Below are positions 3,132 through 31,660 of a stretch of 64,000 bases of DNA, piece by piece. The notes below the pieces were generated by a model. It worked only from the letters and a program-made list of their open reading frames with translations. It was not told where the DNA came from and searched no databases. The position numbers and the translations under genes were made by a program. Every line of letters begins with the position of its first letter. Positions within the stretch are counted from its first letter, which is position 1. Source of the stretch: Microcoleus sp. (lineage in GTDB: Bacteria > Cyanobacteriota > Cyanobacteriia > Cyanobacteriales > Microcoleaceae); NCBI GenBank assembly GCA_042408215.1, contig JAYFMW010000013.1, forward strand, positions 1-64,000, in the 5' to 3' direction.

Positions 3132-4952
3132 ATGGCGCGCCCTGAAAGTCCTTGCCTCAGTATAGCGATCGCTCGCCTGAGAACCGCTGGGGCAAACCAT
3201 TTTGCCACCTGGGTTCTACAAGCCCCCTATCCCAGCGGCTACGTTCACCATGATTGTATGTGGCCGGACACCCTATCCCAAGCGTGGCAAGCTTGGCAGG
3301 AAATGTTCTCCCCCTCCGGGACAATTCACGTTTTGCCCCTAAATCCTGACGGCTGTTTCTCAACTCTGGAAAACAGCCAGAAGATACGGTCAGAAACGGA
3401 AAAACCCACCCATAACTCGCTACAGCTACCTCCATCGGCGCCCCCAGTGCCCCTCCACCTCGGTGAAGGGGGGCGGGGTGACAGGGGGGAGCAAAATCCG
3501 CCGTCGCCACCCCCCAGCTACAGCAGTCGCCTCATGCAGCATTTGGGGATTAATCTTTGGCAGTGGCTGTTTGAAGGGCCGATTCAAGGTAGTCTCCAAG
3601 AAAGTAAAGGGATCGCGATCGGGCAAAATCAACCCCTGCGAGTGCGACTCGACTTGCGGGAACCCTATTTAATTGCTTTGCCTTGGGAAATTATGCAGCC
3701 TCAAGCTGGTCAACCGGCCATTTCTTTGTCGCAGCAACTGCTGTTTAGCCGCACTACCAGCAATGTTGAGCCTTTGGGGCCGCTGCATCCAGCCGAATCC
3801 CTAAATATTTTGCTGGTTTTGGGAGAAGGAGAATCAAGCTTGGTGGCGAATTCTCAATTTTCCAAGGTGAATAATCGTCAGTTGCAGTTGGAAGCAGAAG
3901 CACTGGCTTTGGCTAGTGTTCTGGAAAATGCCAATAAAACCGACGACAGTGGCAAATACTTCGACATCAGTGTTCCGACTCGGGTCGATACTTTGATCGA
4001 ACCGAAAAGGGCCGAACTAATTTCTCGTCTGGAAACACAAGCCTATAACATCTTGTTTTACGCGGGCCACGGGATACCAGACCCCGACGGTGGTTTGTTG
4101 TTTTTGGGGCCGGACACCACGATTAATGGTACTGAACTGGCTCAAGTGCTAGTCCGCTGTCGGGTGACTCTGGCAGTATTCAATGCCTGTTGGGGGGCTC
4201 AGCCGGCTGTGGAGATGGTTGATGCCAGCGGTGGCCAGAAACACGCGATCGCCCGCAGCAGTTTGGCAGAGGTGTTGATCCATCACGGGGTGCCGGCGGT
4301 GTTGGGGATGCGGGACTCGATCGCCGATCGCGAGGCCTTGAGTTTTATCCAAACTTTCGCCCAAGCTTTGGCTGGAAGGATGTCCATCGACCGGGCTGTG
4401 GCGATCGCCAGACAGCAGCTACTGACGCTTTACAAGTTCAATCAACCTGCTTGGACACTGCCGGTGCTGTATATGCACCCGGAGTTCGACGGGCAACTGA
4501 CTCAGCCTGTAGATGATATTAAAACTGAATTGCCTGTAAATTCTTCTACTTGGCTGGGACGTTTGCCCTCCTGTGCTTATTTGCGGGGGTGCGATCGCCA
4601 TCATGGCAATTCCCGCAGTTCAACGACAAATCAGGTTTGGCCAATTCGCGCTGGTATGGTTCGAGTCGGACGCTGGGAAGAAAATGATGTAGTGATTCGA
4701 GAACAGTGGGTTTCTCAAAAACACGCAGAAATTTTCTGCCGTAACAGTATCAGGGATAACGAAAGTGAACCTAGCTACTTCCTGCGCGATTTTTCTCGTT
4801 ATGGGACTCTAGTTTTAGGCCCTGACGGATGGCAGAGAGTTCACCACCAAGAAGTGCTGCTGCGATCGGGCACTCAGCTCAAATTTGGCAGTTCTCAAGG
4901 TCAGATTTTTGAGTTTACCATTGAGGTGGCCAAAACTTCGGACTACAGTTAA
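3132..4952 (+). CDS. CHAT (caspase/HetF-like) domain protein with C-terminal FHA domain
   Basis: LPWE, FYAGHG and FNAC CHAT motifs; FHA motifs VGR..NDVV, SQKHA, DFSRYGT. Confidence 0.85.
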   Translation: MARPESPCLSIAIARLRTAGANHFATWVLQAPYPSGYVHHDCMWPDTLSQAWQAWQEMFSPSGTIHVLPLNPDGCFSTLENSQKIRSETEKPTHNSLQLPPSAPPVPLHLGEGGRGDRGEQNPPSPPPSYSSRLMQHLGINLWQWLFEGPIQGSLQESKGIAIGQNQPLRVRLDLREPYLIALPWEIMQPQAGQPAISLSQQLLFSRTTSNVEPLGPLHPAESLNILLVLGEGESSLVANSQFSKVNNRQLQLEAEALALASVLENANKTDDSGKYFDISVPTRVDTLIEPKRAELISRLETQAYNILFYAGHGIPDPDGGLLFLGPDTTINGTELAQVLVRCRVTLAVFNACWGAQPAVEMVDASGGQKHAIARSSLAEVLIHHGVPAVLGMRDSIADREALSFIQTFAQALAGRMSIDRAVAIARQQLLTLYKFNQPAWTLPVLYMHPEFDGQLTQPVDDIKTELPVNSSTWLGRLPSCAYLRGCDRHHGNSRSSTTNQVWPIRAGMVRVGRWEENDVVIREQWVSQKHAEIFCRNSIRDNESEPSYFLRDFSRYGTLVLGPDGWQRVHHQEVLLRSGTQLKFGSSQGQIFEFTIEVAKTSDYS

Positions 4953-5156
4953 ACTGATTGCGGAACTAATTAAGGTGCTGGTGTAGCTAATTTTTGGCGA
5001 CTTCGACTGCGCTCTGCTACCGAATAGTGACAGAAAAGTTTTGGGCGTTGAGCCTCAAGTCGGGAGTTAACAGAGTGATTCACCACTCGCTACTCGCAAC
5101 TCCCTCTGATCGAAGTCCCCGTTCTGTATTTTCCTTTCTCATTTAGGTATGACATC

Positions 5157-5738
5157 ATGGCTACCCAATCTACTGATTCTCAATATTTTCGCGACTCTCA
5201 AACTCAGGCTGAGATGGAACTTCTCGCCACAATTGTTCAGACTGATATTGCTTACCCCTGGAATCCTGCACAGCTTGAATCAGAATCTTATTTGACAGCG
5301 AAGGAGCAAGAATTTGCGCTGTTTGATTCCTTCAGCGACAGCGATATTGCTCAGAAGTCACAAATATTGTTCGCGCAATTAGAACAAGTTTGGTTAGCGA
5401 CTACTCTGCAAAAGTCTTTGTGTGAGAAATTTGCTCTGGTTCCTCAAGATTTTCTGGCTAGCATCGCTCAAAGCGTCCAAAAAGCAACTGTTAAGTGTCA
5501 ATCTTTAGCTGACCAAATGGTAGAGTGTGTATTAAATATTTTGCCTCAGTGGGCTGAGGAAGATTTGCAGGTGTTGGCGCGTCATGAGGCTTATGCAATG
5601 CGTGAGGCTGATTCCTTCGGGGTGGAAGTTGTCATGGCTACTAGAAGACCTTGGACTGAATTGTCGGAAATTGAACAAGCTAGAGTTAGTTTGACCGTGG
5701 CCCGCTATGCTATATCGCAATTAGAACTTTCTGATTAG
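5157..5738 (+). CDS. Hypothetical protein (YPWNP motif)
   Basis: 193-aa ORF, ATG start, co-oriented with the CHAT gene. Confidence 0.75.
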   Translation: MATQSTDSQYFRDSQTQAEMELLATIVQTDIAYPWNPAQLESESYLTAKEQEFALFDSFSDSDIAQKSQILFAQLEQVWLATTLQKSLCEKFALVPQDFLASIAQSVQKATVKCQSLADQMVECVLNILPQWAEEDLQVLARHEAYAMREADSFGVEVVMATRRPWTELSEIEQARVSLTVARYAISQLELSD

Positions 5739-14592: not shown

Positions 14593-15507
14593 ATGGCAAA
14601 CTCAGTTTTAAATCAGCCAAACGCCACAGCAGAAGTGCAGTGGCAGCCAAAAGATCTTGTCCGCGGCTTAGTGTGGAAAATTGCGATCGCAACCTGGCTG
14701 TTAATGGCTGTAGGTAGCGCCACGCGGGTGATGAATGCGGGGCTCGCTTGCCCCGACTGGCCGCTGTGCTACGGTCAATTAATACCCGCAGCGCAAATGA
14801 ATTTGCAGGTATTTCTGGAGTGGTTTCACCGTTTGGATGCCGCAGCAATTGGCTTAAGCGCGATCGCACTTTTAGGACTATCTTTGTTTTATCGTAGCCG
14901 CGTCCCAAAATGGCTCCCTTGGGCGAGCGCTGGGGCGGTATTCTTAATCGTTTTTCAAGGCGTATTGGGCGGCTTGACAGTAACACAACTGCTCAGATTT
15001 GACATAGTTACCGCTCACTTGGGAACAGCTTTACTGTTTTTCAGCGCCCTCCTAGTCATCGGTTTCATGCTGACTCCCTACGAAGCTACAGGAAATGTCG
15101 GCAAATTGGCTTGGGTAAGTTCCCTCGCAGCATTGTTAGTTTACCTGCAAAGTTTGCTAGGAGCATTGGTAGGCTCTAGATGGGCGCTGCATCAATGTTT
15201 TGGTTCCTCAGAATTGTGCTCGGTAATGAACAGCCACATCATTGGCGTAGTACCAGCTACCGCAGCCACTTTAGCAGTAGCAATCATGGCTTGGCGGCAA
15301 CCAGCACTAAGTTCAAACTTGCGAAAATTAGGGAATTTAGCTAGTGTTTGTCTGATTGCTCAATTAGTTTTGGGATTAGCAACTTTCCGGCTGCACCTTC
15401 AGGTAGAACCGCTGACAGTCGCCCACCAAGCAGTCGGCGCTGCTTTGCTGGGAACCTTGGTAGCCTTTAGTGTTTTGGCTTGGCGCGATCGGGTTTTATC
15501 AGCTTGA
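14593..15507 (+). CDS. ctaA: Heme A synthase (COX15/CtaA)
   Basis: GLACPDWPLC and EWFHR motifs. Confidence 0.92.
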   Translation: MANSVLNQPNATAEVQWQPKDLVRGLVWKIAIATWLLMAVGSATRVMNAGLACPDWPLCYGQLIPAAQMNLQVFLEWFHRLDAAAIGLSAIALLGLSLFYRSRVPKWLPWASAGAVFLIVFQGVLGGLTVTQLLRFDIVTAHLGTALLFFSALLVIGFMLTPYEATGNVGKLAWVSSLAALLVYLQSLLGALVGSRWALHQCFGSSELCSVMNSHIIGVVPATAATLAVAIMAWRQPALSSNLRKLGNLASVCLIAQLVLGLATFRLHLQVEPLTVAHQAVGAALLGTLVAFSVLAWRDRVLSA

Positions 15508-15522
15508 GATGGGCGCGTTAAT

Positions 15523-15640
15523 TAATCGGCGGTTGAAACCGCTACTACACAAACAAAGTCCGCCTCTGCGGACTAAGATGGGCGGGTTTATTAATCTTTT
15601 CACCTACAAGAAATATCTCTCGTAAAACCCGCCCCTACAG
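15523..15640. repeat. Two dispersed REP-like repeats (GGCGGTTGAAACCGCTACTACACAAACAAAGTCCGCC; GGGCGGGTTT...AAACCCGCCC)
   Basis: Palindromic, intergenic. Confidence 0.7.
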
Positions 15641-15691
15641 CCCATGAAAAATGACCACAAGTGACAACTAACCACTAACAACTAATCACCG

Positions 15692-16669
15692 ATGCAAGAA
15701 GTTCTTACAAACAATAGCCCTCGCCATCACGAAAACTTTTCGCAAGTGGCAAAAAGTTACTACCAACTCACAAAACCCAGAATTATTCTGCTGCTGCTAA
15801 TCACCACATCAGCAGGAATGTGGATGGCCGCCAAAGGAGAAGTCGATCCGCTATTGCTATTCGCAACTATCACTGGAGGCGCTTTAGCTTCCGCGTCGGC
15901 TAATACAATTAATTGCATTTATGACAGCGACATCGATTATATTATGGAGCGCACCCGCTGGCGGCCGATTCCTTCCGGGCGTGTCAAGAAACGGGATGCT
16001 TTGATTTTTGCGATCGCCCTAGCGATAATCTCCTTTACATTACTGACAGTTGTTGCCAACTTATTAGCAGCATTGCTAGCCATGTCAGGCATCGTTTTCT
16101 ACGTCCTAATTTACACCCATTGGCTGAAGCGTCACAGCGTGCAAAACATCGTCATTGGCGGTGCAGCAGGGGCGATTCCGCCGCTAGTTGGCTGGGCTGC
16201 GGTGACGGGAGATTTGAGTTGGGGTGCGTGGACGCTGTTTGGGATTATCTTCCTATGGACGCCGCCGCATTTTTGGGCATTAGCAATGATGATTCGCGAC
16301 GAATACGAGGGAGTAGGCGTGCCGATGTTGCCGGTAATTGAGGGCGACGAAGAGACATCCCGCCAAATTTGGATTTACACGTTATTGATGCTTCCGGCAA
16401 CTTTGCTGCTAGTTTATCCGCTGAATTTAGCGGGCGGGGTGTATGCTGGTACTGCGATTTTCCTGGGTGCTATTTTTGCCCAAAAAGCTTGGTTGCTGTT
16501 GCAGACTCCAGAGGATAAGAATGCGGCGCGATCGCTGTTTAAATACTCTATTCTGTATCTGATGCTATTGTGCGCTGGAATCGTGGTTGATAGTTTGCCT
16601 GCGACTCATAATTTTACTACTGCTGTTGTACAAAATGTGCACACTTTAATTAGTGCAGTTGTGATGTAG
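15692..16669 (+). CDS. ctaB: Heme O synthase (protoheme IX farnesyltransferase)
   Basis: [18 protein letters not shown] and WTPPHFWAL motifs. Confidence 0.95.
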
Positions 16670-16678
16670 TTTTCTGTT

Positions 16679-16711
16679 AGAGCCCCGATTTCTTCAAGAA
16701 GTCGGGGCTCT
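16679..16711. terminator. Hairpin between convergent genes (AGAGCCCCGATTTCTTCAAGAAGTCGGGGCTCT); same repeat family at ~9476 and ~10260
   Basis: Long stem between two stop codons. Confidence 0.65.
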
Positions 16712-16717
16712 GGGTAT

Positions 16718-17086
16718 TTAGCTATTTTTCAAATATTTACCCAAAAACTCTAACTGGTTCACCATTTCCTCTGCTGTCTTATTAGCAGTTAGTTCCATAA
16801 TTACTTTAACTTGCTCACCGACAGAATAGTCTTGTGAAAGCAGCGCAATGCCAGCATGAGATTCCTCTCTGATCAGAAACTCAGTATGTAACTGACAGAA
16901 GTCTCCAATATTGTGACTGTACAGCACTCTATTTTGAGTAGCAGCTAGCCGAAGTTGTTCTTCGTCGATTAACCCTTCTGTTTGAGTTTCGTTGACGGTG
17001 GTTACATCTACTTGACGTGCTCGTAATGCCCGTAGTAGGGACTGATCTTGGGAATCTTCATCTAGGTAAAGCCTAATCTCACTCAT
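16718..17086 (-). CDS. DUF5615 PIN-like toxin
   Basis: RLYLDED, DEEQL, YSHNIGDF, HAGI; ATGA overlap with the DUF433 gene. Confidence 0.85.
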   Translation of the reverse strand: MSEIRLYLDEDSQDQSLLRALRARQVDVTTVNETQTEGLIDEEQLRLAATQNRVLYSHNIGDFCQLHTEFLIREESHAGIALLSQDYSVGEQVKVIMELTANKTAEEMVNQLEFLGKYLKNS

Positions 17087-17385
17087 GCTTCTTTACCAAA
17101 GTTGGTGTACAAAGCTTCTAGACGCTTGGCTTCTGCTGCTTGATGGATCAAATCAGTTTCAATTTCTGCGGTGTTGGCATGATAGTAGGTGAGTGCGGCG
17201 TAGACTTCGGCGAGGGTGAGATGAGAAATGCGATCGCAAATCTCTTCAGCATTCAATCCTCGCTTGTACCAGGTGACAATCCGGCGAACGGTAACGCCTT
17301 TACCGAGGATGTGGGGACATCCACCATGCAGTCCGGGAGTGCGTGTAATGAGCGTACCAATGTCAATAGATACTGCTGTGGTCAT
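17083..17385 (-). CDS. DUF433 antitoxin
   Basis: GGCPHILGKGVTV...LTLAEVYAALTYY. Confidence 0.88.
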   Translation of the reverse strand: MTTAVSIDIGTLITRTPGLHGGCPHILGKGVTVRRIVTWYKRGLNAEEICDRISHLTLAEVYAALTYYHANTAEIETDLIHQAAEAKRLEALYTNFGKEA

Positions 17386-17501
17386 AAACTATGGAAGTTT
17401 GAAGGGACTGATCTCTATTACAGCATAGCGATCGCAGAATTATATCGCGGTGTGAATTTGGGGCGAGAAATGAGGTAAGCTATAGACAAAGGTTTCAAAC
17501 A

Positions 17502-17735
17502 ATGCCAGCATCCGTTGCTTATCTGTTTGACAGAATCACAGTGAACCCAAGACAATGTGGCGGTCCCTGCATCCGGGGAATGCGGATTCGAGTCATCGAT
17601 ATCCTAGAGTTGCTAGCTGCGGGTTTGAGTTTTGAGCAAATTCTGGAAGAATTGCCAGACTTGGAAGTTGAGGATATTAAAGCTGCGCTTCTGTATGCAG
17701 TCCGCAAGCTCGACCATCCCGTTTTAGCCGCATGA
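17502..17735 (+). CDS. DUF433 antitoxin
   Basis: RITVNPRQCGGPCIRGMRIRV...EDIKAALLYA. Confidence 0.88.
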   Translation: MPASVAYLFDRITVNPRQCGGPCIRGMRIRVIDILELLAAGLSFEQILEELPDLEVEDIKAALLYAVRKLDHPVLAA

Positions 17736-17810
17736 CAATTTGGTTGAATTTTCATCGAACGGCAGCAATTGCTATGTGAATTAGTGCCACTTTTGGTGAC
17801 ATACATCAGC
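17732..17810 (+). pseudogene. Degenerate 5' stub of a DUF5615 toxin gene
   Basis: ATGA overlap; MTIW...AIAM*ISATFG; ends near GCGATCGATCG. Confidence 0.55.
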
Positions 17811-17924
17811 GATCGATCGGCGGTATTTTTCTCTTCTATTGGGTATTGTACCGCAACTGCGATACAATTATAAGTTCGACTGCTAGATTTTCGTAAACTC
17901 GTAATCAGTTGATATATTTCGGGA

Positions 17925-18671
17925 ATGTCTGAAAAAACTCTGCTAAGTGAAATTGTTCATTGTCCCCATGCACGAGAGTGTCAAGAAGATCTTTCTGTTG
18001 AAAATCCATGTCGTAAAATTGTTGACTCTCAAAATGCAATTGGGTTAGAAAAATTTCAAGTGCCTGAACCTTGGAGTGGACAGATAGAGCAAGCACCCAT
18101 TCTCTTCCTGAGTTCAAATCCATCAATTGGCTCTGATGAAGATTACCCAACTTGGGATTGGTCATGTAGCGAAGTACACGATTATTTCAATTACCGTTTT
18201 GGAGGAGGACGTAAGCACTGGATCGTTGATGGTACAAAATCCTTGCTAAAAGACGGGAAATATAGTCGCTCTACTCGATTTTGGGCAGCGGTTAGACAAC
18301 GTGCGATTGAGCTACTTCAACGGAACGTTAGTCCAGGCATTGATTATGCGCTTACCGAGATAGTGCATTGTAAGTCTCGTGCCGAAACTGGTGTAGAAGA
18401 ATCACAGGAGCAATGTGTGGAAGCCTACTTGTTGAGAGTTTTAGAACTAGCAAGAGCAAAAGTGATAGTGGTACTGGGGGCACGCGCAAAGCAAGTGATT
18501 CAAAGCCAATTCAAGATCTCTACAGCAAATTCAATATCCGAGTTCGTTGAGATAGGGAATCGTGAAAGATTTTTTGCTTTTCTCCCCCATCCAAATGCTC
18601 GGACCCACCGTTCTTTTGCTAAGTGTTTACAGGGTGATGAACTTGAAAAGTTACGCGCTTTTTTGCGGTAG
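17925..18671 (+). CDS. Uracil-DNA glycosylase superfamily protein (integron cassette gene)
   Basis: PEPWSG, LFLSSNP, TEIVHC, VIVVLG and LPHPN motifs. Confidence 0.85.
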   Translation: MSEKTLLSEIVHCPHARECQEDLSVENPCRKIVDSQNAIGLEKFQVPEPWSGQIEQAPILFLSSNPSIGSDEDYPTWDWSCSEVHDYFNYRFGGGRKHWIVDGTKSLLKDGKYSRSTRFWAAVRQRAIELLQRNVSPGIDYALTEIVHCKSRAETGVEESQEQCVEAYLLRVLELARAKVIVVLGARAKQVIQSQFKISTANSISEFVEIGNRERFFAFLPHPNARTHRSFAKCLQGDELEKLRAFLR

Positions 18672-18699
18672 CATCAAAATACGGCAAGAGATGCGCGCA

Positions 18700-18786
18700 C
18701 TCGAACAACGCCAATGCACCCGACCGTCGAGATCCTGTCGGTGGCAGTCTGAGGTAATTTGCGGCGGGTGATTGGCAACGTTAGAC
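18700..18786 (+). other. Integron attC recombination site (87 bp)
   Basis: R'' CTCGAAC; GCCAAT[G]CACCCG[A]CCG pairs with CGGCGGGTGATTGGC leaving two extrahelical bases; R' GTTAGAC. Confidence 0.85.
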
Positions 18787-18851
18787 CGCTAAATCTGAGT
18801 TGGGTAGTGGCTTGAATGTATCTATCAAATTCCAACCCAAAGGTGAATGTC

Positions 18852-19040
18852 ATGCAAGCCAAACTTCAAGAACAACTTTCTCCTGCTGATGCCGAAGTCA
18901 TTTTAAGACGCTTGCCAGAACGAATTCAAGCGGCTCTAATTGCGCGTGCTGCGGAAATTGAATATCCGATCGCAGCCGTGATCGAAATGGCGATCGCCAG
19001 TTTTCTCGACACAATCGAGTCCGTCTACAATAAGAATTAG
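18852..19040 (+). CDS. Small hypothetical protein, probably 3'-truncated
   Basis: EYPIAAVIEMAIASFLD, seen in small cyanobacterial proteins (from memory). Confidence 0.55.
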   Translation: MQAKLQEQLSPADAEVILRRLPERIQAALIARAAEIEYPIAAVIEMAIASFLDTIESVYNKN

Positions 19041-19059
19041 TTAGAGTCTAAAAAAATGT

Positions 19060-19389
19060 ATGCCAGTTGTAGCAGTTAAAACTTACATAGAGTATCGGAA
19101 TGATGCCTATTGGGTTAAAGGAACTCGGATTTCTCTTGACTCGATCGCCTATGCTTTCCAACAAGGATTATCGCCCGAAAGTATTGTTCAGTCTTTCCCA
19201 CTACTGACACTGGAACAGGTTTATGGCGCGATCGCCTTTTATCTAGCCAACCGCGCTGAAATCGACGCTTACCTAGCCGCCGAAGCAGCTGCATTTGATG
19301 CCATGCCTCAACCTCTACAAACCAGCGATCCAGCTTTGTACAACAAACTGATGGCAGCTAAAGCAGCAAGACAGCAGGTGCGATCGTGA
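19060..19389 (+). CDS. DUF433 antitoxin
   Basis: GTRISLDSI...SPESIVQSFPLLTLEQVYGAIAFY. Confidence 0.88.
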   Translation: MPVVAVKTYIEYRNDAYWVKGTRISLDSIAYAFQQGLSPESIVQSFPLLTLEQVYGAIAFYLANRAEIDAYLAAEAAAFDAMPQPLQTSDPALYNKLMAAKAARQQVRS

Positions 19390-19460
19390 ATGTGCGCTAC
19401 CAAGCTGATGCTGACTTGAATCAGGCAATCGTCACAGGATTACTGCGACGAGAACCTAAC
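19386..19460 (+). pseudogene. DUF5615 toxin truncated by a MITE
   Basis: RYQADADLNQAIVTGLLRREP, then MITE; remainder absent. Confidence 0.75.
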
Positions 19461-19568
19461 TATAGCGGTTCTCAAAAAAGTGAGGTATGCCCACGGAACC
19501 CTATGCCCTATGCCCCATGCCCCATGCCCTATGCCCAGTCGTACCTCATCTTTCTGAGAAAGGCTATA
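19461..19568. mobile_element. TA-ended MITE carrying a CCCTATG/CCCCATG STRR
   Basis: TATAGCGGTTCTCAAAAAAGTGAGGTA / TACCTCATCTTTCTGAGAAAGGCTATA TIRs. Confidence 0.8.
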
Positions 19569-19573
19569 TAAAA

Positions 19574-22447
19574 TTAATTCGACTGAATCTGCGAATTCAA
19601 AACCTTAGAAATGCGATCGCGCGTTTCCTCCAAATGAGCCAGCGTATAAGCATCCGCACTCCGATCCAAATTCCGAATACTCTTGCTCAAACCCTCCCGC
19701 AACTGCCGCAACTCGTACCAAGCCAAACTCCGCGCATCTTCAGGAACACTCGTTTTTCGCAGCACCATACCGATCAAAATTGCCAAATGTTCCCGCTGCA
19801 ACGATCGCCTAAAAGTCGAAATCTCCATCTTTTTATTTGTCGGTTGTAAAACCTCTTGCCAAACATTTTTTTGCACAGTATCCAACACTTCCGGCAACCT
19901 TAAAGCTGTTTCCGGCGAAGATTTTAACTCGGCATCCCGCAGCCTCGCCAAACGCTCAGGAGAGAGCAAAACCCGCAATACAAACCGCTGCAAAAAAGTA
20001 ATCCGATCGCCGATCGGATAATCTAAAGGAAATATCAAAGCTGAACTTCCCCAGTGCTCCCAGCGCTCAGGCGCCAATTTATTCAGCAACTGGGGCGCAA
20101 AACTAAACGCATCCGGCGCAAAAACGTACTTATCCAGGGTTGCTAAAGCCGATCGCTGCTGACTAAGTGCGATCGGGACAAACGGCAATTTCCCCTGCGG
20201 ATCGCCAGGGCGAATCCGGCTAAACGACTGTCCCCCCACATACAAAGTAGCATTCATCACCTGCTGAAAATAATACCAGAACACCGAATCAAACATCACC
20301 CGAAGTTCATTGTAACCATCTTCCCCAACCGGAATTCGGCTTTCCAAACGCTTCCACATCGCCCTAGAATTATCCAATTGTGATTGCGAATAGCGGAGCA
20401 TATTGGCACTAAGATCGAAGATATTCGCAGCGGGATCGAGACTCGCAAAAGTATCCTCATCCGGCGCGTAAGCTAATTGCGGTTCCGCAGCGCGGCTGGC
20501 AATTTGCTGTAGCATTGGCAATTCGCTACTAGGATTGACAGCACCAAGCACCTTGTAACCATACTCGATCGCCCAATCATCATAAGGCCCCACAATCATT
20601 GGATAATAATCGCCCTGTACAGTTCCCGGCGCAGCCAAATTAATCGGCACATAATCCATCACCGACGCCACCAAACCTTGGGTGCGAGTTAACTGAGTAT
20701 TGTTCAAATCCTCCGGTTGCAGCATCGTACTACCGTGAAAATTGTGTCTCAAACCCAAAGTATGACCGACTTCATGAGCCGTCAAAAATCGGATATATTG
20801 ATTCACAAAATTTTCAATTTCCGAACTATTAGGTGTCGCTCCTAACAGAGACATCGACATTGCGCCCATCGCAAATTGTTGGCTCGATTCCAACCCAAAG
20901 CACAGATCCGAATCCGACATCAACCGCGACACAGGCGAGCGCTTTTGCTGTTGGTATCTTTCCACCAAAGTCGGCAAATCATCAGCAATTACACCAGGAG
21001 AATTTTCCTTTTTTCCAGTTTCTGAATTCCCATTTTCCAGCAATTTCAAATAGCGAGAATACATCCCGAACTGACAAGGATTGGTGTTAGAGCCATTTCG
21101 CCCTTGAAAACTCCTAGCAACCGATCGATTTTGTTCCACCAAAGACCGATAGCCCTGTTTGATTTGCCGGACAATATTAGCATCCAAGAGAACATCTGCA
21201 TCCAAAATTTCCCCAGTCAGCGGGTTAGTGCGAGATGGGCCGATACCGGCAAACTGAGGCTCAAAAGAACTCGACCAGCGAATAGTATTGTAGCGCACAT
21301 CAGCCGGGTCCCATTTCGCATTATCCGGCATTTGTTTAACCTGAATTGCCTCAGTAAATCCCGCCTTTTCAAAGGCTTTGTTCCACATCAAAATGCCTTC
21401 ACGAATGGCATTTCGGTATTCCAGAGGCACATTGTTTTCAATCCAAAAGACGATGGGCTGCACTGGCGGCGAAAGCGGGGCCGTGGGGATTTGTTTTTGC
21501 AAATGCCAGCGATTGATATAGCGGACAAAAGGCTCCCGTCTGCTCTTGTCAGAAAAGTCCTTATATGCTGTCAGGAAATAGCCCACTCGCTCGTCCGCCA
21601 ATCTGGGGCGATAGCCGTTATTCAGCGGCACTTCCGAGAAACTGTAGTGAATGCGAAGATTAAAAGCCCGACTGTCAGGAACCGAGGGTAAATAGTTGAC
21701 TGAACTGTCATTTTCGCTTGAAAAACCGTAGACAGAAGCAATCTCCACATTCAGCGGAAAGGCTTTAACTTCTTGAAAATAAGACTTGTCAGCATCTATC
21801 GAGTAAGGCGCACCCAAAATCATCGGCAAAAACGATTTTAATCCTGGCAAATCTCGCTGTTCGCTCATCAGCAAATCACCCAAATCTATCAGCAGAGTTT
21901 GCCTTTGTGGATGAATACTTTTGAGCGGCAAAGAATACAGAACCGATTCACTAAATCCCCGTTCTACCGAACCTGCTTGCGGGTCGCCCGGACTTGTGCG
22001 AAAATTTATATTAGGAATCACAAACTGTACGTTATTTTGGACGCGCCGCAGTTGAAATAAGAAATCTCCGAATGGCATTCCGCTCAAAAATCCTGCTTCT
22101 CCTAAACCTGAAGCCAAAGTCACAAAACACAGGAACTTTTTGGTAAGTTGTTGCGGTTGAATTTCCAGATAAACTTTATCTGTTGCTTTATTATGGTAAA
22201 GGGTGAACATCCCCTCCAACTTTTGCGCGTCTTTGACAACCTCATCGAAGGGTTGCAGAGCTTGCTGTTCTCCTCTTTGTTCCTTCCCCGGCGGCGGAGC
22301 TGATAAAGCATAGGGTAAAAATAAACCTTGATACAAACTGAACAGAAAAAATGCTAGAGATAATATAAAAAATACCAAAGGCAGATGTTTTTTGGGATTT
22401 TTTATCTGTGGATTTTTGCTAGTTTCAGGAAAGATCAATTTTTTCAT
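19574..22447 (-). CDS. Exported zinc-dependent metalloprotease (Met-zincin, DUF5117/DUF5118 type)
   Basis: HEVGHTLGLRHN and SVMDY Met-turn; N-terminal hydrophobic segment. Confidence 0.9.
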   Translation of the reverse strand: MKKLIFPETSKNPQIKNPKKHLPLVFFILSLAFFLFSLYQGLFLPYALSAPPPGKEQRGEQQALQPFDEVVKDAQKLEGMFTLYHNKATDKVYLEIQPQQLTKKFLCFVTLASGLGEAGFLSGMPFGDFLFQLRRVQNNVQFVIPNINFRTSPGDPQAGSVERGFSESVLYSLPLKSIHPQRQTLLIDLGDLLMSEQRDLPGLKSFLPMILGAPYSIDADKSYFQEVKAFPLNVEIASVYGFSSENDSSVNYLPSVPDSRAFNLRIHYSFSEVPLNNGYRPRLADERVGYFLTAYKDFSDKSRREPFVRYINRWHLQKQIPTAPLSPPVQPIVFWIENNVPLEYRNAIREGILMWNKAFEKAGFTEAIQVKQMPDNAKWDPADVRYNTIRWSSSFEPQFAGIGPSRTNPLTGEILDADVLLDANIVRQIKQGYRSLVEQNRSVARSFQGRNGSNTNPCQFGMYSRYLKLLENGNSETGKKENSPGVIADDLPTLVERYQQQKRSPVSRLMSDSDLCFGLESSQQFAMGAMSMSLLGATPNSSEIENFVNQYIRFLTAHEVGHTLGLRHNFHGSTMLQPEDLNNTQLTRTQGLVASVMDYVPINLAAPGTVQGDYYPMIVGPYDDWAIEYGYKVLGAVNPSSELPMLQQIASRAAEPQLAYAPDEDTFASLDPAANIFDLSANMLRYSQSQLDNSRAMWKRLESRIPVGEDGYNELRVMFDSVFWYYFQQVMNATLYVGGQSFSRIRPGDPQGKLPFVPIALSQQRSALATLDKYVFAPDAFSFAPQLLNKLAPERWEHWGSSALIFPLDYPIGDRITFLQRFVLRVLLSPERLARLRDAELKSSPETALRLPEVLDTVQKNVWQEVLQPTNKKMEISTFRRSLQREHLAILIGMVLRKTSVPEDARSLAWYELRQLREGLSKSIRNLDRSADAYTLAHLEETRDRISKVLNSQIQSN

Positions 22448-22476
22448 GTTTAGTCTCCAGCCACGGGAAGGAAGAA

Positions 22477-22872
22477 GTTATTAGTTATTAGTTGTTAGTG
22501 ATGGGTGATGGGGAATTGGTGATGGGTGATGGGTGATGGGTGATACCAATTTTTTATGAGGCTGCATAGAATCTGATCCCCCCTAACCCCCCTTAATAAG
22601 GGGGGAACAAGATTCCGATCAAAGTCAACCCCTACTCACACCCTACTCCCTTCTTAAGGGGGATGCGAGGGGGATCGAGATATGTGCAACTTCACCTTAA
22701 ATTGGTATGATGGGTGATTGGTCATGGGTGATTGGTGATGGGTTATTAGTACCAATTACCCATTCCCAATTACCCATTCCCAATGCCCAATTCCCAATGC
22801 CCAATTCCCAATGCCCAATTCCCAATGCCCAATTCCCAATGCCCAATTCCCAATTACCAATTACCCATTACT
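22477..22872. repeat. Opposed STRR tracts (GGGTGAT vs CCCAATT/CCCAATG) with MITE 22544..22707 inside
   Basis: Direct reading. Confidence 0.85.
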
Positions 22873-22919
22873 ATTTGTAACTTATGTAACTAAAAATCGC
22901 CATAACTCATTACGATCAA

Positions 22920-30287: not shown

Positions 30288-31660
30288 TACTTGTTACCCG
30301 AAGTCAGGAGACGGCATTGCCGTTTCCCTACAATATTATTTTGGGTAGGGAGACTCAAGCGTGCCCATTGGTGTCAACTTAAGCCTGAAAGCCTTTGTAT
30401 CTCTCGTTCATAGCCGAGTCTAGATCCCCCTAAATCCCCCTTAAGAAGGGGGACTTTGAAAAGACTCCTGTCCCCCCCTTCTTAAGGGGGGCTAGGGGGG
30501 ATCTAGATTTAATAGTCAAACAACAGTCTATGACTGGGTTTGACCTTAAGTTGACACCTATGGGCAATGCCGTTTCCCTACAGTATTATTTTGGGTAGGG
30601 AGACGGCAATGCTGTTTCCCTACAGTATTATTTTGGGTAGGGACACGGCAATGCTGTTTCCCTACAGTATTATTTTGGGTAGGCAGACTTGTTACCTGAA
30701 ATTAGGAGACTCAAGCGTGCCCATTGGTGTCAACTTAAGCCTGAAACCCTTGGTATCTCTCGTTCATAGCCAAGTCTAGATCCCCCTAAATCCCCCTTAA
30801 GAAGGGGGACTTTGAGAAGACTCCTGTCCCCCCCTTCTTAAGGGGGGCTAGGGGGGATCTAGATTTAATAGTCAAACAACAGTCTATGACTGGGTTTGAC
30901 CTTAAGTTGACACCTATGGGCAATGCCGTTTCCCTACAGTATTATTTTGGGTAGGGAGACGGCAATGCTGTTTCCCTACAGTATTATTTTGGGTAGGGAG
31001 ACGGCAATGCTGTTTCCCTACAGTATTATTTTGGGTAGGCAGACTTGTTACCTGAAATTAGGAGACTCAAGCGTGCCCATAGGTGTCAACTTAAGCCTGA
31101 AACCCTTGGTATCTCTCGTTCATAGCCAAGTCTAGATCCCCCTAAATCCCCCTTAAGAAGGGGAGTAGGGGGTGACGAAAGAGAAGACTCCTGTCCCCCC
31201 CTTCTTAAGGGGGGCTAGGGGGGATCTAGATTTAATAGTCAAACAACAGTCTATGACTGGGTTTGACCTTAAGTTGACACCTATGGGCAATGCCGTTTCC
31301 CTACAGTATTATTTTGGGTAGGGAGACGGCAATGCTGTTTCCCTACAGTATTATTTTGGGTAGGGAGACGGCAATGCTGTTTCCCTACAGTATTATTTTG
31401 GGTAAGCAGACTTGTTACCTGAAATTAGGAGACTCAAGCGTGCCCATAGGTGTCAACTTAAGCCTGAAACCCTTGGTATCTCTCGTTCATAGCCAAGTCT
31501 AGATCCCCCTAAATCCCCCTTAAGAAGGGGGACTTTGAGAAGACTCCTGTCCCCCCCTTCTTAAGGGGGGCTAGGGGGGATCTAGATTTAATAGTCAAAC
31601 AACAGTCTATGACTGGGTTTGACCTTAAGTTGACACCTATGGGCATTGCCGTGTCCTCTA
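30288..31660. repeat. Tandem array of composite MITE+REP units (periods 356, 356, 367 bp; four MITE copies)
   Basis: TIRs GCCCAT(T/A)GGTGTCAACTTAAG at 30363, 30719, 31075, 31442; 42-bp REP units GTAGGGAGACGGCAATGCTGTTTCCCTAC between them. Confidence 0.95.

Follow-up and report, generated by a model that had tools for sequence, protein, structure and literature searches.

We examined a window of Microcoleus sp. DNA, comprising the 64,000 nt at positions 1-64,000 of contig JAYFMW010000013.1 (assembly GCA_042408215.1; this contig is called C13 below). It holds a gene of the uracil-DNA glycosylase (UDG) superfamily that is followed directly by an attC recombination site of the integron type and preceded by a short conserved module. 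The features at the center of this analysis are as follows:

17795-17876, plus strand: putative attI-type docking module; its conserved core, 17843-17876, ends at the crossover G17874/T17875 T17876
17875-18780, plus strand: 906-nt gene cassette with one gene and its attC; it opens with the T that directly follows the attI G and closes with the G of R'
17925-18671, plus strand: UDG-superfamily gene, 248 aa, Pfam UDG match of 30.3 bits
18700-18786, plus strand: attC site of 87 nt, with 28 nt between the stop (18671) and R''
attC 5' arm, plus strand: R'' CTCGAAC at 18700-18706, unpaired spacer AAC at 18707-18709, L'' at 18710-18726
attC 3' arm after the variable loop, plus strand: L' at 18761-18776, spacer AAC at 18777-18779, R' GTTAGAC at 18780-18786

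Very probably, these features are a bona fide integron cassette seated at the attI of a chromosomal integron that has lost its integrase gene (intI), in Microcoleus (Oscillatoriales), with a relative of the iron-sulfur (Fe-S) UDGs as its product. The dock is recognized by homology and position.

Within the attC, L'' reads GCCAAT-G-CACCCG-A-CCG and the opposite arm CGG-CGGGTG-ATTGGC, so that two bases of the R''/L'' arm, G18716 and A18723, are partnerless and extrahelical, 6 nt apart; in attC sites, such bases on this arm determine polarity. An earlier reading of this DNA from its letters alone (the sequence-only reading) had placed the open reading frame (ORF), R'', R', both extrahelical bases and a GTTCGAC at 17874, and every one of these coordinates was exact when we reread the sequence. 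The single hairpin is thermodynamically unremarkable, and the case for an attC rests on the conservation of its family. A blastn search with 18672-18800 against the own genome found two copies on contig C6, 72-73% identical and 1.2 kb apart. In a comparison set of 61 genomes (the window's own, 36 others of the same genus and 24 from other genera of the order), 26 had matches to the attC element (E ≤ 0.01). An alignment of 23 family members (A1) has the conserved frame xxxxAAC-AAC-GCCCATGCAC(A)CCGACCG ... CTGCGGCGGGTGATGGGC-AAC-GTTxxxx. The proposed structure pairs 82.5% of its cells; shifting the 3' partners by 1-3 columns lowers this to 29.5-45.2%, and neither its pairing nor its covariation score was equaled by any of 500 shuffles. 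In the L helix, 88.6% of cells are paired across the 23 sites, with compensatory swaps (GC in 11 sites against CG in 6 for pair 16-84; CG in 10 against AU in 5 for pair 19-81). Only the AAC/GTT pairs of the R helix are well conserved (A-T in 21/23 and 23/23, C-G in 16/23); beyond them the helix varies, as expected of an attC, where the bases past G|TT are those of the following cassette.

A covariance model built from A1 (R1) found one site in the window, at 87.8 bits, with its own reverse strand at 16.5 bits and the best unrelated match at 16.3 bits. Because the window site belongs to A1, that test is circular. We therefore built a second alignment (A3) without the window site and without the attC of homologous UDG cassettes, adding members adjacent to integrases (the G056 site is present twice), and derived from it a leave-one-out model (R2). 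RNAalifold on A3 gave the same L helix with the same bulge, and five of nine pairs had changes on both sides. R2 scored the window attC at 85.2 bits (E 4e-19); across the 64 kb it had just one further match at E ≤ 1, of 12.4 bits, on that site's reverse strand. The attC at 18700-18786 claimed from the letters alone is thus matched strongly by a model, made for this analysis, that had not seen it. Rfam, which has no attC family, returned no match to the site and only a sub-threshold CRISPR direct repeat (CRISPR-DR) match at 15552-15575. With R1, the own genome contains at least ten matches at E ≤ 1, at least eight of them at E ≤ 4.3e-6 (C13, C6 twice, C19, C20 three times and C16); these counts are lower bounds, 150 of 1865 first-look candidates having been scored. 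Four weak, equal-scoring attC-model matches elsewhere in the window (30512, 30868, 31235 and 31591; span 30512-31627), spaced by ∼360 nt, point to a tandem repeat.

The link of this attC family to integrons comes from relatives that still carry an integrase. The NCBIfam integron integrase profile TIGR02249 (cut-off 265 bits) exceeded its cut-off in 2 of the 61 genomes, G048 (two intact genes, 490 and 460 bits) and G053 (416 bits, one in-frame TAG), and matched fragments in seven more, one of which (G008) is from the same genus. In G048, intI lies at 4290-5231 on the plus strand (460 bits), and attC sites lie on the minus strand at 2553-2646 (57.5 bits) and 400-492 (R1, filters off). The G053 intI is on the minus strand with attC to its right on the plus strand; G056 has an intI remnant on the minus strand and two attC on the plus strand; and G055 has an intI remnant, a divergent attC and three more attC nearby. 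This makes the family one of integron attC sites, arranged in the canonical divergent layout with the integrase reading away from the cassette array. The own genome has no intI (best TIGR02249 match 29.4 bits), and the earlier remark that the window lacks one is therefore correct and extends to the whole genome. Integrons in Cyanobacteria are already on record in the part of Cury et al. (2016, PMC4889954) that concerns them.

Both ends of the cassette fall at G|TT, 17874/17875 on the left and 18780/18781 on the right, and GTTCGAC at 17874-17880 stands 51 nt before the ATG. On the left, copies in unrelated contexts are alike directly after GTT, which is followed by CGACTGCTAGATT in the window, by CGACCGCTAGATT in G021 and by AGACAGCCAGATT in G013, G011 and G024; in G013 and G011, what precedes the cassette's GTT is the 3' end of a different attC, a weak one (18.8 bits). 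On the right, homology ends at the GTT of R', and the next bases vary by locus (AGACCG, ATTACA, ATCTCC, ATGCGG, ATCTTG, GTACCG, GGGCTG). Public metagenome contigs share 17847-17876, 17847-17881 or 17849-17892 with the window and then diverge; one joins a different attC to 18779 onward and one departs at 18782, with loose ends at 17876, 18779 and 18782. Because the homology breaks and the metagenome breakpoints lie at G|TT, the cassette is 17875-18780, complete and with the limits that the sequence-only reading had predicted. That reading had derived the cassette's own 5' core from its atypical R'', a deduction that holds across homologues. Among 11 diverged or representative homologous cassettes, R'' is GTCGAAC in eight and CTCGAAC in three. 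The own core GTTCGAC was found by pattern in 8 of the 11 (it is absent from the pattern matches in L088, L101 and L090) and is complementary to R'' at 7/7 positions in five cassettes and at 6/7 in three, the window type among the latter.

A contig joint of 17796 to 18839 (X17) may represent a replaced cassette rather than an empty site. Metatranscriptome contigs from three studies (X10, X15, X17) span the cassette at 99+% identity; since contigs assembled from RNA libraries are no proof of transcription, they were not counted as expression. The absence of the highly iterated palindrome HIP1, noted from the letters alone for the gene, is correct but is uninformative as a sign of foreign origin, 0.65 occurrences being expected in 906 bp (P(0) = 0.52). 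GC content was also considered as such a sign; it is slightly lower in the cassette (0.39-0.47) than in the surroundings (0.46-0.50) and was given no weight.

The module before the cassette recurs. A fuzzy search with its 34-nt core (≤7 mismatches of 34) found four copies in the own genome (C13:17843-17876, C19:21903-21936, C19:22311-22344 and C20:391502-391535), each near an R1 attC, and copies also lie in many fetched loci of relatives from several genera, with a different cassette after each GTT. The bases conserved before the crossover are ...GTATTGTACCGCAACTGCGATACAATTATAAGTT. Full-length copies reach ∼100 nt further left (GAGATTCyGATGGGGAGTAAGAAGGrGTTGACATACATC...) and contain TTGACA where the window copy has GTGACA; the window dock is left-truncated at ∼17795 and retains no intI stump. 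When relatives were searched by tblastn with the G048 integrase, the first 28 intI codons followed by a stop were found reading away from the dock in L077 ("Phorm 6"), L079 (Tychonema), L043 (G024) and the own C19 (21040-21123, the only such stump in the own genome), and the first 76 codons stand beside the dock in L112 (Tychonema BBK16). A tblastn search with cyanobacterial IntI (E ≤ 5) found no intI trace in 15000-21000 of the window. At the syntenic locus, G034 and G027 have the same module with other cassettes, encoding a 360-aa protein without Pfam family (G034) and a DUF4037 protein (G027); G024 has a copy of the module on another contig, followed by AbiTii (158.7 bits). In G011, a SUKH-1 (SMI1/KNR4) gene and its own attC precede the same downstream flank as in the window.

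That the dock is flanked by intI stumps and followed by varied cassettes suggests, by homology and position only, that module 17795-17876 is the attI region of a cyanobacterial integron, most copies of which are without an integrase. With an attI-type dock and no intI in the genome, the locus reads as an integrase-less integron remnant with one cassette, and by descent it is an integron remnant. The history that we propose is that a chromosomal integron lost intI, while the attI dock would have persisted and one cassette would have been retained. The sequence-only reading had seen an orphan cassette integrated or transferred into a toxin-antitoxin island; this part of it fails, since the cassette sits at a conserved attI-type dock that has intI stumps and other cassettes in relatives.

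Several loci bear on how the dock travels. The same truncated intI allele (28 codons, with the stop after ...EKSY(I/L)YY(I/L)) occurs in several genera (L077, L079, L043 and the own C19), and it looks as if intI stump, dock and first cassette are copied together from place to place. On the own C19, at 21040-22895 (L154 4041-5896), next to the 28-codon stump stand, in order, an inserted Uma2-like ORF, a full dock and a second module; this second module is a hybrid, an attC 5' half fused to a dock 3' half, and leads into a 106-aa cassette and an attC. An AAA-ATPase and HNH gene pair just upstream is a candidate Septu-like system. Another full-length dock lies on the minus strand at C20:389575-391535 (L155); behind it come a gene with a cold-shock domain, a fragment resembling an EF-Tu GTPase, a toxin-antitoxin pair (Gp49/HI1420) and an attC. 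C6:129000-133000 (L012 7211-10442) contains three BrnT/BrnA-like gene pairs and then a PAD_porph (agmatine-deiminase-like) gene between two attC, at 131129-131223 and 132346-132441.

The UDG-like gene is present in 17 of the 61 genomes, the own and 16 of the 36 others in the genus, and is intact in all 17; none of the 24 genomes from other genera has it. We collected 79 homologue loci from species genomes. In 19 of them an R1 attC match starts 29 nt after the stop, ten being near-identical Microcoleus loci and nine diverged ones, some of them labeled Planktothrix paucivesiculata, Tychonema or "Phorm 6", so that the cassette occurs across genera; the model, which is specific to the cyanobacterial attC family, gave no match in the 34 loci with ≤50% protein identity. 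Twelve other Microcoleus assemblies carry the cassette at the same locus, and their identity to the window as reference is as follows:

Cassette, 17875-18780: 897-906 of 906 nt (99.0-100%), 12/12 assemblies
Three 250-nt bins inside the cassette: 99-100%
Left flank, 17431-17874: 87.3-91.5%
Right flank, 18781-19013: 80.4-93.1%
ctaA/ctaB region, 250-nt bins: mostly 84-95%

Because the cassette is 99-100% identical while its core neighbors are at 84-95%, it has moved or been exchanged between species recently. Such movement could have gone through IntI acting in trans or through homologous recombination across the conserved att junctions. No integrase match at E ≤ 1e-20 was found in five genomes of this group within the relatives set (G012, G017, G023, G026 and G031).

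Several observations weigh against the reading of the locus as a mobile cassette at an integron dock. The hairpin, at -18.3 kcal/mol in a DNA fold, is no better than its shuffles (z -1.22 for the bottom strand and -0.83 for the top), and fold energy, not being significant, was dropped as evidence for it. The attC consensus is RYYYAAC for R'' and GTTRRRY for R'; R' GTTAGAC fits, and R'' CTCGAAC keeps AAC while deviating at positions 1 and 4. The canonical extrahelical pair on the bottom strand is G/T, and the first extrahelical base here is C, not G. No sigma-70 consensus promoter was found in 17736-17924. The locus has only one attC site (R1 and R2, filters off), and with no integrase in the genome its present mobility is something that we infer. 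Finally, the near-identical block (∼17820-18850) is wider than the cassette, extending ∼55 nt to the left and 70-80 nt to the right beyond the crossovers, and so is no proof of site-specific transfer; going outward, differences resume at 17720-17826 on the left and at 18850-18860 on the right. The 55 invariant bases on the left could also reflect constraint on the dock, and the extra near-identical flanks probably fit homologous exchange at least as well as IntI in trans.

A fold energy within the shuffles, the lack of an Rfam match and an atypical R'' would also suit a hairpin arisen by chance, a terminator or a dispersed repeat of cyanobacteria beside an ordinary chromosomal UDG paralogue. 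We consider this scarcely credible: the family is conserved, covarying and strand-specific, its arrays stand next to intact intI, the flanks switch exactly at the GTT cores, and the gene is patchy (16/36 in the genus, 0/24 in other genera). Quite improbable, too, is a true orphan, a single attC site lacking an integron integrase (SALIN) that arose when IntI inserted the cassette at a secondary (attG-type) GTT site inside a toxin-antitoxin island. It would account for the single attC, the lack of intI from window and genome and the DUF433/DUF5615 genes on both sides, and such insertions are documented in the portion of the preprint by Loot et al. (10.1101/2022.09.11.507474) used here. However, the 34-82 nt before the crossover form a conserved module, with four copies in the own genome and more in several genera, that is always followed by a cassette; an N-terminal intI stump stands beside it in L077, L112, L079, L043 and the own C19; and other cassettes lie behind it at the syntenic site in G034 and G027 and elsewhere in G024. 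Moreover, the same portion of that preprint describes attG sites as unlike attI and attC. A cassette at an attI-type dock is the reading that we retain.

Under the tool definitions, a locus with one attC and no intI is a SALIN and not a CALIN (a group of attC sites with no integron integrase), which takes at least two attC within ∼4 kb. SALIN is defined for a single attC without integrase in the consulted portion of Loot et al. (10.1101/2022.09.11.507474), and loss of intI is one of the CALIN origins put forward in the corresponding part of Cury et al. (2016, PMC4889954). Of what makes a complete integron, intI is absent here and a putative attI is present, by homology and position only; two attC at CALIN spacing occur on C6, which thus has a two-site CALIN in the same genome, and not at the window locus, which has one attC. 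The locus resembles CALIN and SALIN in being attC-bounded with no integron integrase nearby. It differs in that an attI-type dock is recognizably kept and reused, and in that copies of the dock and of the 28-codon intI stump are scattered over loci and genera. The classes themselves, an integrase-less integron and a UDG-like gene on a cassette, are known.

We next consider the cassette's protein. Its match to the NCBIfam family 4 UDG model TIGR00758 is 19.2 bits, below the cut-off of 125.3. The best sequence match in the Protein Data Bank is 1UI0 (E 0.17), and a profile search gave 4ZBX (E 4e-4) as the only match at E ≤ 0.01. The family is large, with 589 proteins in a word-indexed search and 1142 clusters at E ≤ 1e-3 (325 at E ≤ 1e-30) in an exhaustive one. 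Record names place its members in Cyanobacteria, Chloroflexota, Acidobacteriota, Planctomycetota, Actinomycetota, Bacillota, Thermotoga and an archaeal metagenome-assembled genome; a protein atlas search returned only unnamed or UDG clusters. Thirty aligned homologues share invariant residues at C13, C29, C149 and C164, at N65 (SSNPS, 63-67), at E145 and H148 (TEIVHCKS) and at H222 (LPHPNA, 220-225), and all 30 have SSNPS in place of GEAPG.

An AlphaFold (AF2) model of high predicted quality (predicted local distance difference test, pLDDT, 94.7; predicted template modeling score, pTM, 0.92) was compared with known structures, a comparison with the UDG families that the sequence-only reading had proposed. 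Its nearest neighbor is the Sulfolobus tokodaii (S. tokodaii) Fe-S family 4 UDG 4zby/4zbx (Z 15.9, root-mean-square deviation 2.7 Å over 174 residues, 21% identity), followed by Thermus thermophilus UDGA (e.g., 1UI0; Z 14.0-14.1), 2D3Y, an enzyme of family 5 (Z 14.0), and T. maritima UDG (Z 13.4-13.6), and lower down by UdgX (∼Z 12.8) and TDG (∼Z 10). The host also has a canonical family 4 UDG on contig C5 (144 bits), with CxxC, GEAPG, ANVIKCRPP and HPS. That gene, at C5:159951-160406, adjoins a 462-aa DNA-methyltransferase-like ORF.

Short alignments place E145 of the cassette protein opposite the Asn of the family 4 motif, and C149, C164 and H222 opposite their counterparts in 1UI0 and 4ZBX. 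The four cysteines and the HP motif B that mark UDG family 4 are present (C13, C29, C149, C164, H222), with a predicted cluster, whereas the family score and the GE(A/G)PG motif are not reached. The protein and the family 4 enzymes (4ZBY/4ZBX and 1UI0) have the same fold (Z 15.9 and 14.0) and align at the two C-terminal cluster cysteines and the HP motif. They are at most 21% identical, however, and here SSNPS replaces GEAPG, Glu replaces the Asn of (T/A)N(I/V)(V/I)KC, and the N-terminal cysteines are 16 residues apart instead of forming CxxC. The gene product is probably a DNA glycosylase on the scaffold of the Fe-S family 4 UDGs, as the model and the four invariant cysteines suggest. In enzymes of families 1 and 4, the Asn of the family 4 motif is the residue that reads the face of the uracil, and the MUG/TDG and SMUG families typically have xxNPx as motif A. 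Since the protein has an Asn in xxNPx and an invariant Glu in place of the family 4 Asn, its substrate is expected, from these motifs, to be other than plain uracil.

What the enzyme does can be proposed only tentatively. A role in defense, in which it would strip a modified base from phage DNA, is possible at less than even confidence; we hold an accessory repair glycosylase acting on some damaged base to be equally possible, and some other function to be only slightly less so. We surveyed the neighbors of distant homologues at 30 of the 34 loci L114-L147 (all but L118, L134, L141 and L147, the last a near copy of L144). Five have clear defense neighbors (Cas8b; BrxA/BrxB; a type I restriction-modification system; PDC-S41 with PDC-S02; PDC-S26), and three more have mobile-element or conflict neighbors (type IV secretion system genes, a transposase, a Schlafen-like gene). 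Moreover, cassettes at the same dock or in the own genome include AbiTii, a SUKH immunity protein and toxin-antitoxin pairs. Three results count against the defense idea or the motif argument behind it. The other 22 distant loci have neither defense nor mobile-element neighbors (housekeeping genes or genes of no known role), PADLOC (2.0.0, library of 2023) gave no match to the protein, and a profile-profile comparison with the host family 4 UDG is weak (probability 5.8%), so that the residue correspondences rest on short motif alignments.

A second repair glycosylase for uracil or deaminated bases, with the same integron structure around it and no phage role, is a serious though not the favored outcome, at below even confidence. 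It would fit the nearest structures, all of them repair UDGs, the lack of a PADLOC match and a very large family (1142 clusters) whose genes often stand beside housekeeping genes (MreB, EPSP synthase, tRNA synthetases, MoaA). Against it, the host already has a canonical family 4 UDG, the gene is on a mobile cassette, the 30 aligned homologues all depart from family 4 at motif A and at the Asn position, and 8 of the 30 distant loci have defense or mobile-element neighbors.

The defense proposal has precedents among UDG-superfamily enzymes on mobile or defense DNA. Brig1, a phage defense enzyme of the superfamily, has 4ZBY as its best structural neighbor (Z 9.2) in the part of Hossain et al. (2024, PMC11078745) consulted, and UDG-like cassettes occur in Vibrio integrons, one of which, Brig2, blocks phages with modified thymidine, according to the excerpted text of Getz et al. 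(2025 preprint, 10.1101/2025.10.29.685425). The cassette enzyme is like both in its superfamily and in its setting, and like the Brig2 type in being carried on an integron cassette. It differs from Brig1 in family size, 42 PSI-BLAST homologues being given in that part of PMC11078745 against >1000 clusters here; the enzymes are set side by side by published description only. In the six supplementary files of PMC11078745, of which those read are accession tables, no cyanobacterial name from our list (Microcoleus, "cyanobacteri", Planktothrix, Tychonema, Oscillatoria) appears. It is conceivable, but rather unlikely, that the enzyme is the first example of a large Fe-S UDG branch, with an xxNPx and Glu pocket, that excises a modified, probably cytosine-like, cyanophage base, its cassette being passed among Microcoleus via attI docks without a resident integrase.

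The flanks of the cassette contain the following features:

16718-17086 and 17083-17385, minus strand: DUF5615/DUF433 gene pair (Pfam)
17502-17735, plus strand: lone DUF433 gene (Pfam); the upstream genes occupy the position of intI in intact integrons
18781-18799, plus strand: 19-nt stretch TTAGACCGCTAAATCTGAG that separates the attC crossover from a second core, GTTGGGT, at 18799-18805
18816-19571, plus strand: downstream neighbors, namely a 74-aa ORF without Pfam family, a DUF433 gene at 19060-19389 and a 61-aa ORF

No attC was found after the downstream neighbors at 18816-19571. The downstream flank of the window also follows other attC sites in G011 and G027, and in G034 the attC GTT is joined directly to GGGTAGTGGC, the sequence after the second core. 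The stretch 18781-18799 is a shared downstream junction and perhaps the stub of a lost cassette. Window 19460-19570 contains a short repetitive stretch (PMPYA-type repeats in one frame) that matches own contigs and relatives' loci at 68-83% identity. Collinearity with the five longest Microcoleus loci ends at ∼19.0-19.4 kb, so that the large minus-strand gene at 19574-22447, which resembles an M-type peptidase, is not syntenic in them.

The locus merits attention for its recent spread between species without a resident integrase and for an unstudied family of Fe-S glycosylases with an altered pocket. It is a well-delimited example of cyanobacterial integron decay, of the persistence of a dock and of the movement of a single cassette between species. 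If the cassette is indeed being passed among Microcoleus species via attI docks, integron cassettes would stay in circulation through trans-acting integrases or through homologous exchange of att flanks. Should modified phage bases prove to be the enzyme's target, immunity based on glycosylases would reach cyanobacteria and the Fe-S UDG scaffold as well; without an anti-phage role, the locus would be an ordinary member of the CALIN/SALIN class. In either case, the 248-aa Fe-S glycosylase with its altered base pocket is a testable candidate from a family of >1000 clusters without an assigned substrate.

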